Shown: positions 3,723-58,171 of the stretch, piece by piece
Position numbering within the stretch: position 1 is the first letter of the stretch
Layout: every line of letters starts with the position of its first letter
Source of the DNA: Eledone cirrhosa
Lineage: Eukaryota
Length of the DNA: 64,000 nucleotides
Assembly: GCA_964016885.1 (NCBI GenBank)
Contig: OZ024748.1
Coordinates: 558,001 to 622,000 of the forward strand
Direction of reading: 5' to 3'
Made by a program: the position numbers and the translations under genes
The notes under the pieces: generated by a model
Databases searched by the model: none
What the model was told of the DNA's origin: nothing
The model's input: the letters and a program-made list of their open reading frames with translations, nothing else

Positions 3723-3928
3723 ATATATATATATATATATACATTTATATACATATATATATATATATATATATATATATATATATATATACATACATAT
3801 ATGTAGGAGGTGAGTTTTATTGTAGTACAATAAAGCAATGCAGATATCGGATAAGTAGCACTCTACAGTTTGTAGGACTGGAGTATAAATAATATATAAG
3901 ATCAAAAGATGGTTAAAAGAGTTCCATG

Positions 3929-3999
3929 TATTTTATTATGTGCATTTCAAAAACAAATATCATCATGCAATAACATTTGCGTTTTCGTCAGATAAAATA
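3929..3999 (-). ncRNA. Mirror-copy hammerhead ribozyme candidate
   Basis: Inverted copy of 4126-4196 with stem III A-TGCACA-T. Confidence 0.7.
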
Positions 4000-4125
4000 G
4001 GGAGACATGATATGAAGGTTAAAACACTCTTGTGAATAGTGCAGTTTTAAATCAACATATCATGATATGTTGATTTAAAACTGCACTATTCACAAGAGTG
4101 TTTTAACCTTCATATCATGTCTCCC

Positions 4126-4196
4126 TATTTTATCTGACGAAAACGCAAATGTTATTGCATGATGATATTTGTTTTTGAAATGCGCATAATAAAATA
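4126..4196 (+). ncRNA. Candidate minimal type-I hammerhead ribozyme
   Basis: Stem I TATTTTAT/ATAAAATA; core CTGACGA at 4134-4140; ~15-bp stem II at 4141-4176; GAAA; palindromic stem III A-TGCGCA-T; H=A at 4188. Confidence 0.75.
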
Positions 4197-4419
4197 CATG
4201 GAACTCTTTTAACCATCTTTTGATCTTATATATTATGCATACCTATATATATATACATATACATATATATATATGTATATGTATGTATATAATTTTTACC
4301 TGATTTACAGTTAAAAAGTTCTAGAATATTCTTTCATGTTTTCCTCTTTGTCCCTCCCTCCAATCTCTCTCTCTCTCTCTGTCTCTCTTTATTTTGGACA
4401 ATAGGTGTTTTCTTCTCCC

Positions 4420-4775
4420 TCCTGCTCTACTTCTCCCCTTTCTCCCTCACATATGTCTTCTCCTCCCCCTCTTCTCTCTCCCTCATGTCTTCTCCTCCTC
4501 TCCTCTCTCTCCCTCACATGTCTCCTCCTCCCCTTCCTCTCCCCTCACATGTCTCCTCCTCCTCTTCCTCTCTCTCCCTCACATGTCTCCTCCTCCACCT
4601 CCTCCCTCTCCCTCACATGTCACCCCTCCCCCTCTCTCTCCCTCACATGTCACCCCTCCTCTCCATCCCTCACATGTCTCTCCTCCCCCTCACCCTCACA
4701 CGTCTCCTCCCCTTCCTCTCTCTCCCTCACATGTCTCATCCTCCTCCCCTTCCTCACTCTCCCTCACATGTCTCC
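4420..4775. repeat. CT-rich minisatellite built on CTCCCTCACATGTC
   Basis: Motif recurs ~10 times with variable CCT spacers. Confidence 0.85.
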
Positions 4776-5617
4776 AATACACCACCTATCGATTTCTTGA
4801 CCTTCATAGAATAAACTGCTTCTAACAGAAATTTTCCTGTTTGAATTAAATATCTTCTGTGTCTGTGGGATTACTACACCATTTGACTCTCTCTCTCTCT
4901 CTCTCTCTCTCATCATTTTACGTCCACCTTTTCCTGCTTTGTTATATATATATATATATATAACGTACCGGGGTACTCGATACTTAGGGTAGTAGAGTTG
5001 GTAACAGGATCAGTTTGGGTCTAGCTGTCGAAACAGCTGGAGCTCAGCTGTCAGGGTCCTGACTCTTTATATATATATATATATGTATAAGAGGAGAGGA
5101 TAAATATCCCCTAACTCCTTGTGGAGTCGTAGAGGCACTGTCATACGGTGTGTCTAGGGCACATTTAAACTTGGCGGAGCCCAACCCAGTAAATACGAAG
5201 GACACAGAACTCCATGGCCATTGAGATGGACTTTGGCAGTTTTGACCCCTACCAACGGTACTACTGGTCCTCTCAGGAAACAGCGTCTGACATAAGCCAA
5301 ACGCTGTCCAGTGGAGTAAGAGACATTAATTTATAGCCATTAAGCTAATAACACATATAATTGTATGTATGTATATATGTGTATGCGTGTGTATATATAT
5401 ATATATATATATATATATATATATATATATATATATGAGTCCCATGTTCAATCGGGGGTTACCACAGTAAATAAGGTACTCAATACATTAGTAGAGTGTA
5501 TACAAAAAATTTAATATAGAAATAATGATTTCCTTCAAATGTTAATAACAGTTGTAGTCCTGTAGAAGCCATTTCTGTATTAATTTTTGTTATATATATA
5601 TCTATCTATCTATTCTA

Positions 5618-5806
5618 AGGCGGGTAAAATTCCCGAGATCCATGGACGAGTTCTCTCCAGTGGTCTCTGTCCCTCATTATCGCTGCCATGTCCTGCATCT
5701 CCAACAGACCAGTGTCTGTCCTTAGGGCATCAACATACGTTAACCTTGGTCTTCCTCTTCTAGTGTACATGGACATACTAGAAGAGGAAGACCAAGGTTA
5801 ACGTAT
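5618..5806 (-). mobile_element. Short RTE 3' fragment with an inverted duplication at its 5' end
   Basis: Minus strand reads [40 protein letters not shown]; 5735-5806 forms a hairpin with ~30-bp arms. Confidence 0.7.
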
Positions 5807-55112: not shown

Positions 55113-55262
55113 TAAAATAAGCATATCAGGCAAAGTTGAAAATAAGCATATCAGGCAAAGCTGAAAATAAGCATATCAGGCAAAGCTGAAAATAAGCATA
55201 TCAGGCAAAGCTGAAAATAAGCATATCAGGCAAAGCTGAAAATAAGCATATCAGGCAAAGCA
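55113..55262. repeat. 25-bp tandem repeat x6 with a lone inverted copy at 55470-55491
   Basis: Unit GAAAATAAGCATATCAGGCAAAGCT. Confidence 0.9.
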
Positions 55263-55866
55263 ACTTGAAACCCTGATAGCAATATAATAGAACCAGTGTA
55301 CAATCCATGGTTGTGACTGATTAAAAACATTCACTAAAATAAAACATAGCCAATGTAATGAAAAAGATAGCAATAACATTGATACTCTCAGCACATATAC
55401 ATTTGAACATTATAGAAACAACAGTCACACTACATCCACTATAAAGCCATAGTTTTAATACAAAAACACCTTTGCCTGATATGCTTATTTCATGTGATAC
55501 CTTTACCTTGCAAAAAATTATATATACCTAATTCCATTGCTTGTTTCCTTCCTGTATATGACTAATGCATTTGCACTCTCTTTACGCTTGCATAGGCACT
55601 GCTAGTGTCCTCGTTTTACGAGTAACTTTCTACCTTAATGCCTCTTTAATTGTTATACTATTCCCTTATAATCTCTGTCGCTTGCATTCCACTCTGTACC
55701 TTTATAATTTATAATTTTTAATTTTAATTATTGTACAATTCTCTTGTAATCTATGTCGCATCCATTCGACCCTGTAAATACGAAACTGTTGTTGACATTA
55801 ATATCTATGTATCTATATGATTGTTCAGTTGAATAGGAGGTTAATTATAACTACAAAGATTGCTAC

Positions 55867-55913
55867 TGCTCCGATGATTCCAAACGAAAGTTTGGAAGAA
55901 ACGATTGTCAGCA
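55867..55913 (+). ncRNA. Hammerhead-like motif with CCGATGA core
   Basis: Stem I TGCT/AGCA; CCGATGA; perfect stem II TTCCAAAC-GAAA-GTTTGGAA; GAAA; stem III A-CGATTG-T; H=C (GUC). Confidence 0.55.
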
Positions 55914-56244
55914 ATAAAATGATTTGAACATAGCTTTGATTATTGTGTAATTTATATTCCGGCTCTGTAAACATCTGATGTTCTTACATTGAGCTATTTT
56001 TTTCTTACTGATAATAAGGTATTAATAAATTACTGACCCTTCCTGTTTATAGTTGTATATAGTGTATACATAACTATAAATAATATATATATATTGTTAT
56101 ACTTTGGGAGGGTCATGTTGGCAATAAGAAACACACGCACCAGTTGCTTTCACTTCAATTTATTATAATAAATTTATAAATTTAGGAATTTATAAATTTC
56201 CGGTTGGTTGGTTGGTTCCACAACCAGGTGGTTGTTTATATATT

Positions 56245-56287
56245 GTCAAAGTTCTTTCGTCACACATTCTGTGACCTCTTCAGTGAC
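56245..56287 (-). ncRNA. Mirror-copy hammerhead candidate
   Basis: Inverted copy of 56432-56474. Confidence 0.6.
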
Positions 56288-56431
56288 TGGGGATTCTTTT
56301 CTTTGTTTTTTTGTTTTTGTGCCTTTCCTTTGTTCTGTCCTACGCCATCTTGTTTGAACATTGAAAACAAGATGGCGTAGGACAGAACAAAGGAGAGGCA
56401 CAAAAACAAAAAACAAAGAAAAGAATCACCA

Positions 56432-56474
56432 GTCACTGAAGAGGTCACAGAATGTGTGACGAAAGAACTTTGAC
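56432..56474 (+). ncRNA. Candidate minimal hammerhead ribozyme
   Basis: Stem I GTCA/TGAC; CTGAAGA plus an extra G; stem II GTCACA-GAATG-TGTGAC; GAAA; minimal stem III A-G-AA-C-T; H=U. Confidence 0.6.
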
Positions 56475-58171
56475 AATATATAAACAACCATCTGGTTGTG
56501 GAACCAACCAACCAACTGGAAATTTATAAATTTATTATAATAAATTGAAGTGAAAGCAACTGGTGCGTGTGTTTCTTATTGGCAATATGACCCTCCCAAA
56601 GTATAACAATATCGGTTTCAACACACGTTTTCAGATAAAGAATCTTGCTAAACAAATTCAGAAACGAAATATATATATATATATATATATATAGACATGT
56701 ATATATAGGATTAGTCAACAGTACATCTATATTTTATTGGTTGCCAACAAATAAATATAAAATATGTCACCTTCATTCATCACATATTCAACAGTTAAAT
56801 TTAAAGATCTGTTGCTGTTGTTGTGGTTGGCATTACATCTACCACCACCACCGCCAACACCACCACTGTCACCTACAACTCCCAGTCAATAAAAGTACCT
56901 TTATTGGTTGCTAACTCTGCTAGAAATAGCAGTCAAATCATCTTCAAACCACAATCCATCTTAGAAGCTATCACTTTAATTATTACTTTTCTTGGATAAT
57001 CAAATTTAGAAGACTTTTGATCATAGGACAGCTTGATTGGGGCAGATCTTGACCTGGGGTTAAACTACTTATGTTGTTGTTGCTACTACTACTACTACTA
57101 CTATTACTACTACTACTACATCCATGTGTGTAGTAGTGGCGCCCACACACATTATTAGCTATTTGAAAAGATGATGGATTTCGCAACTAACTGCACCAGG
57201 GTTCCTGTTCCCCAAGGAACCATACTATATGGTATACCTGTTGATATAGGTCCAGCTCCTGCTTTCCCGGGTCCTGTTTCTGATCATAATGATCTCTAGG
57301 GATACGGGAATCAGTGGACGGGACCTGGGGGCAGCGATGGGGGACAGGGAATTCTGGGGCATGAGAGTGAGATCCATCATCTCGACAGTAGTCGAAGAAT
57401 GATGATGATGACATCATATATATATACATTTATATATATACATATATGTATATATATATATATGTATATATAGCAGAGTATAACAGTTTTAATATAGATG
57501 AGATTCTACAGGACTAGAACTGTTTCATTCATTAGAAATCATCATGTATATATATATATATATATATATATATATACATACACATATATATACATACATA
57601 TATACATACATATATATACATATATATACATATATATATATATATATATATATATATATATATACATACATATATATATACACACACAGACATATATATA
57701 TATATATATATATATATATATACTATTTCCATTACCATTTCTGTTGCCACAATTCCTCAGAGTCCAGTTTCACAGCAGAGAAGGAGAGAAAGAAATAACG
57801 TGAAAACAAATTTCTATTAATGGAATCAGCTTGAGTCTGTGAGTGATTCTAGACATGTGTGTGATTCTCTTTTTATCCATTCCCAGATTAAAAAGGGAGC
57901 CAGCCATGGACTTAGTAATTCTGATTAGTTTCTCATTTTAGTCTTTGGTTCTTTGGTTCTTTGGTTCCTTGGTTGTTCATTGGCGTTGGTTGGTTGTTTC
58001 ATCAAACACAGCAGTAACAGCAGCAGCAGCAGTAGTAGTAGCAGCAGCAGCAGCAATGGAAATTATGTAACATGTTACATTGATTTAAGTATCATGTTGA
58101 TATATATATGTATATATATATATGTATGTATATATACATATATATATATATATATGTATATATATATATAT

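Follow-up and report, generated by a model that had tools for sequence, protein, structure and literature searches.

In a 64,000-nucleotide stretch of the genome of Eledone cirrhosa (positions 558,001 to 622,000 of contig OZ024748.1, assembly GCA_964016885.1; hereafter the window), five long inverted repeats carry motifs of the hammerhead ribozyme. Most of these fold-backs are probably head-to-head ends of coding Penelope-like elements (PLEs), that is, hammerhead-bearing pseudo-long terminal repeats (pLTRs) devoid of an open reading frame (ORF), and they likely arose when both ends of a cut TA repeat primed copying of the element RNA. The window is AT-rich and dense in microsatellites; the host assembly comprises 3.0 Gb in 1796 contigs. 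A preliminary description of the window had reported the five inverted repeats, linked them to PLEs and taken them for several families of non-autonomous ribozyme elements; the first two points are upheld by what follows, and the third is revised.

Fold-backs and the pairing of their ends

Masked self-BLAST of the window recovered all five inverted repeats, each head-to-head with the hammerhead 3' ends pointing outward, as first described. The arms are 99% identical in fold-back A (3883-4242), 86% over 43 nt in C (18642-18797), 100% over 54 nt in B (35877-36120) and 89% in E (56091-56612); in D (46024-46826) the outer 98 nt are 100% and the inner 62 nt 98% identical. The inverted repeats had thus been located correctly, but their one-sided tails had been omitted. 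With tails, A spans 3803-4236, with a long tailed arm on the minus strand (4062 to 3803) and a short arm on the plus strand (4063-4236); its centre is a CATAT..ATATG palindrome and TA repeats flank both outer ends. C spans 18587-18789, a tailed minus-strand arm (18760 to 18587) facing a short partial arm (18755-18789), and B spans 35877-36206, with a short minus-strand arm (36064 to 35877) and a tailed partial arm on the plus strand (36067-36206). In D (45858-46826, start approximate) the tailed minus-strand arm, 46441 to about 45858, is split by a later insertion resembling a short interspersed element (SINE; 46149-46335) and is joined to a short plus-strand arm (46439-46826). E (56091-56670) combines a short minus-strand arm (56355 to 56091) with a tailed plus-strand arm (56365-56670). 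A sixth family, G, is present as a lone, 5'-truncated plus-strand arm with tail (55256-56086), apparently the 3' untranslated region (UTR) of a Hydra-type PLE, which stops beside fold-back E.

Each family has two fixed 3' end points downstream of the hammerhead, termed S and L, which lie about 57 nt apart in C, 58 in E, 60 in F (a tandem family described below), 85 in A, 90 in B, 128 in G and 166 in D. The sequence from S to L, termed the tail, forms the leader of the unit that follows. We tallied end pairing in families A, B, C, E and G, excluding D (reference without tail), F (tandem), 11 loci that were the window itself or duplicates, and long fetched stretches. Among 87 head-to-head pairs, 70 combined S with L, two were S+S, none was L+L and 15 had an unclassed end; S+L thus accounts for 70 of the 72 classifiable pairs (p 6e-19 versus one half). 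One S+S pair, from family A with arms 11% apart, probably represents two insertions. All five window fold-backs pair one S with one L end, as do all eight ORF-bearing inverted copies found elsewhere in the genome. In the same five families, nine tail-to-tail neighbours lie within 700 nt of each other. When these families are pooled, (TA)4 adjoins 117 of 130 S ends and 112 of 142 L ends against a background of 12%, counts that are slightly inflated where the reference itself ends in TA. In 37 of 42 S+L pairs, the sequence distance between the two arms is smaller than that to the median other copy.

The S+L pairing fits coupled priming from both DNA ends. On the mechanism we propose, the reverse transcriptase (RT)-endonuclease would cut a TA repeat, and both cut DNA ends would prime copying of the element RNA, with S serving one end and L the other, probably within a single RNA. 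Each cDNA would extend in the direction of the 5' terminus of the RNA but end prematurely (in A, most often some 70 nt beyond the hammerhead core on its upstream side); the two would then be joined head-to-head, often at a short palindrome. The fold-backs would then be the shortest members of a series that includes the ORF-bearing inverted copies. The hammerheads would cleave tandem precursor RNA, either in dimeric form or aided by the protein of the element, and single genomic copies are probably inert. The protein of an Anolis PLE, Poseidon PAc, is described in the available parts of PMC11167929 as a predicted dimer; it cleaves both strands of AT-rich DNA and extends them, and it begins reverse transcription at two internal positions between which the tail lies. 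It also aids the cleavage of its hammerhead, although that cleavage is dispensable for insertion in vitro.

Alternatively, a single cDNA or antisense template might fold back at a palindrome and prime its own copying (snap-back self-priming), so that the second arm would arise with no second target-primed event. The fold-back centres would suit such a process: A fold-backs turn at CATATG, where many arms begin, some 70 nt ahead of the core (at -67 to -74 in 7 of 15 incidental copies and in roughly half of the 46 targeted ones), and several B fold-backs turn near GATGTC/GACATC; further 5' start peaks in E (-64) and B (-35, -11) may be alignment breaks and were left unused. The arms of young copies are near-identical, and Arkhipova et al. 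2013, in the portions of PMC3846280 available, read junction palindromes as self-priming. A copied arm cannot exceed its template, however, yet the tail sits on the short inverted arm in seven of the eight ORF-bearing inverted copies. Moreover, in two of them (L112, L205; L numbers denote loci) the inverted pLTR joins mid-ORF, where no direct pLTR adjoins on which it could fold back. We consider snap-back rather unlikely and retain two-ended priming as the preferred reading.

The ends show one further feature: in families A and B a small putative hairpin, (A/G)CTC...GAG(T/C), lies about 5-12 nt behind both S and L, and in families C and G it lies behind S (L252 after 1570 and 1652; L113, minus strand, after the S and L ends of B; window 18620-18645 and 55960-56000).

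Coding partners, and families F and C

Each arm is a dispersed repeat, with 499-3502 first-look candidates per arm across families A-G and best-copy identities of 96-99% (A), 99% (B), 90-96% (C), 85-94% (D), 90-97% (E), 92-98% (F) and 92-95% (G). Linkage of the arms to GIY-YIG/RT ORFs, for which a BLAST search had been suggested, was found for A, B, D, E and G: their arms are termini of RT plus GIY-YIG elements elsewhere in the genome. In D (14 of 20 loci), E (8 of 20) and A (2 of 30), endonuclease-coding DNA lies upstream of the arm, in sense; in B and G the 3' UTR is 1.3-1.5 kb long and the coding link is visible only in longer stretches (L115, L193, L186). Partners with RT and GIY-YIG domains occur at L112 and L252-L257 for A, at L113, L193 and L205 for B, and at L116 and L120 for D; coding partners of E are at L190 and L264-L266, and that of G, at L186, comprises the endonuclease part only. 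The pLTRs are arranged directly in L252, L254 and L190 and inverted in L112, L120, L193, L205, L253, L256, L264 and L265.

A search for the family A RT gave 42,918 candidates, with open frames of at least 800 aa in 18 of 150 scored matches. All six fetched A copies have an open RT-endonuclease frame of about 820 codons followed by an A arm, and in L252 and L254 an A arm also precedes the ORF, running through the tail into the leader; the unit measures 3.86 kb (L252, 1397 to 5261). E elements have open frames of 995-1257 aa with E arms alongside, and B and D show the same RT and endonuclease domains in broken frames. These young families with intact ORFs, family A above all, are an addition to the known PLEs that could serve in vitro work. 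The window itself holds no recognizable PLE ORF, as had been noted: tblastn returned nothing, and its long ORFs are other long interspersed element (LINE)-type or simple-repeat frames. The window copies of A, B, D, E and G appear to be ORF-less truncation products of coding PLEs.

Clade and domain calls come from motifs read by eye against published alignments, with no RT tree behind them. Family A proteins carry RLRWT, DKT at 144, CxCX5C at 680, CxxC at 780 and CxH at 808; B and D carry RWR/RWK, DKT and CNCX5C, and G the linker only. By these diagnostic motifs, A, B, D and G are putative ends of Hydra-type PLEs; RT3-RT4 agrees by eye with Hydra-2_Amil and Hydra-1_Ajap, and database relatives are 32-38% identical. 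Family E has a CX4CxxC linker at 1131 (L264) before a CCHH-type GIY-YIG domain, and its linker spacing, likewise judged by eye, suggests a Nematis-like PLE. A placement in the Naiad clade was rejected: the endonuclease is C-terminal to the RT in A, B, D and E, whereas in Naiad it is N-terminal and no canonical hammerhead is present. Asn/Thr-rich low-complexity inserts interrupt E and A ORFs (L264, 5991 to 2221; L252); such inserts have been reported from ORFs of Adineta Penelope elements (PMC3846280, in part).

All seven families might, alternatively, be dedicated non-autonomous elements, resembling retrozymes or miniature inverted-repeat transposable elements and moving as short units, much as the preliminary description had envisaged. 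Family F is a closed non-coding unit, C is without a linked ORF, and many A arms begin at the one spot given above. The arms of A, B, D, E and G, however, are truncated at variable points on their 5' side and run on upstream into 3' UTR and the endonuclease-coding region, and junctions differ between copies, indicating that the fold-backs were not copied as a unit. For these five families the linked coding sequence refutes non-autonomy, and as an account of all seven the idea is decidedly improbable. Non-autonomy appears to fit F and may fit C.

In the window, F occupies 11830-12232 (plus strand), about one unit of a closed, retrozyme-like non-coding repeat of about 430 nt, with a 36-nt terminal redundancy (11830-11865 equals 12198-12232). 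In 15 of 20 loci (among them the window and a locus retrieved twice), the F tail immediately precedes the hammerhead; L128 and L136 each contain two successive units, at spacings of 429 and 433 nt, and no sense ORF was found upstream in the 20 loci. F therefore looks like a closed unit with PLE-type ends of the kind expected for a non-LTR retrozyme; it would be an ORF-less, circularly closed PLE derivative, likely moved by the same enzymes. The upstream region of C is rich in simple repeats. Endonuclease pieces near C in L167 and L180 have no C end downstream of them, and in L172 the sequence past the L end matches C upstream DNA, but so do 29 of 40 control regions, reflecting low complexity. 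A pyrimidine tract ending in TAG lies about 40 nt before helix I of hammerhead C (L170, 1470-1520, oriented) and resembles an intron 3' end by eye; in D. virilis Penelope the intron end coincides with helix I (PMC4209133).

Several observations weigh against coding PLE ends made by two-ended priming. The A elements with intact frames form a subfamily distinct from that of the window arm, to which they are 90-93% identical. Pfam names no Hydra-type protein and gives only a weak RVT_1 match for the E-type, and no coding partner of C was found, in sense orientation, in 60 loci (20 + 25 + 15) and five longer stretches. Four of the 42 S+L pairs are no closer than average, and shared age or gene conversion can also account for the similarity of the arms. 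For the anole element in vitro, the start site did not differ between the strands and coupling was not reproduced (PMC11167929, in the parts available). Finally, the monomer folding energy is no better than in shuffles for six of seven motifs (z -1.2 to +0.1), G alone reaching -2.9, and in the predicted structures of D and F the core is mispaired; weak monomer folds are expected, because the motifs are thought to work as dimers.

A further-reaching proposal, which in our judgement could fall either way, is that PLE insertion is a coupled two-ended reaction, in which one RT-endonuclease dimer would prime the two ends of a cut (TA)n at different fixed sites of one RNA, in Hydra-type and Nematis-like elements alike, and short fold-backs would be run-off products of 5' pLTR priming. 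If true, nearly every inverted insertion should have one tailed and one tail-less end, and this genome, with its roughly quarter-million hammerheads and its young, intact master elements, would document the reaction more richly than any other of the genomes compared.

Hammerheads, their abundance and other features of the window

Nine complete type I hammerhead layouts were found in the window, within the eight to ten motifs estimated earlier: two each in A and E, and one each in B, C, D, F and G. The layout had been attributed to every fold-back and is indeed present in all five, but it is complete in both arms only in A and E; the second arm is partial in B, C and D. Hammerhead A (4126-4196, plus strand) has an 8-bp helix I, the helix III palindrome TGCGCA and a predicted cut after 4188, and its counterpart in the second arm (3929-3999, minus strand) has TGCACA in helix III. 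Hammerhead B (35920-35984, minus) combines an 8-bp helix I with helix III TATGTA, and C (18675-18748, minus) has helix III CCTTTGG. The minimal hammerhead of E (56432-56474, plus; second arm 56245-56287, minus) shows an extra G before helix II, helix III GAAC and a CUU site. Hammerhead D (46576-46694, plus) is the least canonical of the nine and is caught by neither descriptor used below; it has a CCGAUGA core, a helix/loop II of about 95 nt, the palindrome CAATTG and a helix I of only 3 bp, and the window copy carries a C-A mismatch in helix II that is absent from most other D copies. The two motifs reported outside fold-backs are complete type I layouts, F at 11950-11992 (plus; 6-bp helix I, helix III palindrome CTAG, GUU site) and G at 55867-55913 (plus; 8-bp helix II, GUC site). 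A degenerate minimal hammerhead of an eighth family, missing from the earlier list, was recognized by eye at 7461-7496 (minus), with GAAA read as AAAA.

A strict type I descriptor gave four matches in the window against a mean of 0.13 and a maximum of 2 in 60 block-wise dinucleotide shuffles, and a relaxed descriptor, written after the motifs had been seen, gave eight against a mean of 0.1 and a maximum of 1 in 40 shuffles. The fair test of the latter was a set of 40 evenly spaced 10-kb genome samples (400 kb; small unplaced contigs fall outside the sampling), which held 35 matches versus 0, 1, 0, 0, 0, 0, 1 and 1 in eight shuffles. The enrichment over shuffled sequence, for which a check had been suggested, is thus borne out; the suggested covariance-model check is not, as Rfam gave no window hammerhead at gathering score and, at E<=1, none among the 150 matches listed of 293, which were dominated by microsatellites matching microRNA models. 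Perfect palindromes can come from chimeric long reads, Rfam is silent and the junction of window fold-back E (56295-56414) is left uncovered by short-read contigs; an origin of the palindromes in misassembly, or in the chance occurrence of a short motif within AT-rich sequence, is nevertheless scarcely credible, since the arms differ in sequence and length in a family-specific manner, the contigs (runs X1 and X2, one sample) hold many different head-to-head joints of E, with the S end running into (TA)n, and shuffles give only 0-2 descriptor matches.

Structural support was assessed on all fetched DNA (1.2 Mb, 300 descriptor matches). Helix I occurs in 21 different 4-bp types, each in at least two loci. 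In helix III, for which the descriptor demanded only the outer pair, 23 of 37 distinct segments are self-complementary versus 8.4 expected, 15 of them by Watson-Crick pairs only. In an alignment of 16 A/B-type copies, chosen from the window and the genome samples, 91% of the cells are paired, compared with 36-57% in slid controls, and two-sided changes occur at 10 of 21 base pairs, the stem covariation that had been sought. Because the structure was drawn from one copy and the copies are related, this covariation favours selection on structure without proving it. The type I hammerheads of the arms are predicted self-cutting motifs.

The sampled density of 88 motifs per Mb (58-120 by bootstrap of a BLAST-based count, which likewise gave 35) extrapolates to about 260,000 in the genome, roughly 0.2-0.35 million. 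At about 140 per Mb the window lies at the upper edge of the ordinary for this genome, and the high density previously ascribed to it is no peculiarity. Other genomes have been counted with other descriptors, giving 126,247 canonical motifs in axolotl (PMC7229834, in part) and about 9,000 minimal hammerheads in Xenopus (PMC4209133); against some 2,000-9,000 minimal hammerheads in Schistosoma, coelacanth and Xenopus, the figure of about 0.26 million here allows only a rough comparison, as descriptors differ. Literature searches, which reached few subscription papers and no bioRxiv supplements, found no genome-wide count of octopus hammerheads, and the main text of an Octopus vulgaris repeat paper does not mention ribozymes (PMC13282606). 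The very large load suggested here may be missed by repeat annotations of such genomes. The 400 kb also contain at least eight hammerhead families unrelated to A-G (L216 at 1964, minus, and 9020, plus; L201, L202, L209, L214, L222-L224, L226), some with helix II insertions of 85-95 nt or with the palindromes CACGTG, CGGCCG, GTAC and CGCG. At L197 (245.0 Mb on contig C1), within this unbiased sample, three hammerheads 310 nt apart form a tandem array of 310-nt units.

Other features of the window include an isolated piece of the A tail (21681-21741, minus) and CUGAUGA/CCGAUGA cores without a fitting type I layout at 33524-33560 (plus), 10414-10360 (minus) and 45708 (minus). Three more fold-backs lack a hammerhead core (26070-26268, 36365-36481, 48741-48795); that at 36.4 kb is a repeat that often adjoins PLE ends in TA repeats (L018, L020, L163, L172). 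The SINE-like repeat that splits arm D at 46149-46335 recurs at 6632-6782, 11285-11474, 12762-12871, 13618-13804, 32041-32211 and 63406-63564; it is abundant and has repeatedly entered the (ATA)n of the D pLTR (also L098, L099, L101, L102, L103, L107 and L109). Pieces of a LINE with a PHD finger, which we take from their translations to be RTE-like, lie at 1-986, 28764-31159, 57929-60226 and 61337-63185, and a 983-aa relative in L189 matches RVT_1, Exo_endo_phos and PHD. On the same footing, 37105-39753 is presumably an L1/Tx1-like element.

Comparison with known systems

By themselves the five fold-backs are ordinary, being known ends of a known retrotransposon group whose clade has already been reported from an octopus. 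The literature already contains inverted pLTRs, including those with a tail at one end (PMC3846280 and PMC8557442, each in part), as well as hammerhead pairs on opposite strands, tails on one side only, insertion into (TA)n and a Hydra family from an octopus. The Hydra clade of PLEs with a C-terminal endonuclease includes Hydra-1_Obim from an octopus, and for one Hydra element an inverted copy is recorded together with hammerheads on either strand (Craig et al. 2021, PMC8557442, in the parts available). As that source describes the clade, the Eledone elements share with it the RW-type N-terminal motif, DKT, a divergent RT4 (FDITMG), the CxCX5C linker, CxxC and CxH around E and N without CCHH, a hammerhead near the 3' end with U at the cleavage position, (TA)n targets, an inverted 5'-truncated copy and a one-sided tail. 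They differ in size, a tendency of the clade (generally <3 kb, tails 30-40 bp) rather than a criterion: the A unit is 3.86 kb, tails measure 57-166 nt, the B 3' UTR is about 1.5 kb and helix II is longer, up to about 95 nt in D. Hydra-1_Obim is listed there without a pLTR, and its hammerhead differs by eye. A, B, D and G thus look like new families of the Hydra clade. In family E the spacer after CxxC has, by eye, seven residues as described for Nematis, and not the 20 or more of Neptune (PMC8557442, in part).

The motifs resemble minimal hammerheads in their short palindromic helix III, extra nucleotide before helix II and many families per genome; opposite-strand minimal pairs 100-700 bp apart were ascribed to truncated PLEs (PMC4209133). 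Families A, B, D, E and G are not retrozymes. Like the metazoan non-LTR retrozymes of PMC7229834, as far as its available parts describe them, F is a non-coding, low-GC tandem unit with a type I hammerhead; it differs in its unit of about 430 nt, in occurring mostly as one to two units and in its PLE-type tail and inversion. A derivation of non-LTR retrozymes from PLE pLTRs has been proposed (bioRxiv 10.64898/2026.07.22.740005, in part).

The closest parallels to the end anatomy are Poseidon PAc (PMC11167929) and Adineta Penelope (PMC3846280). The available parts of both accounts describe two RT start sites bounding the tail, a tail on one inverted pLTR, AT-rich targets and palindromes at the inversion junction; the two elements belong to other clades, and there the tail is called optional on one end. 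Literature searches of the same reach, twin priming in PLEs included, yielded no tally of how the ends pair. New here is the count of near-strict S+L pairing across five families, with which an unsettled point about PLE inversion becomes directly testable.

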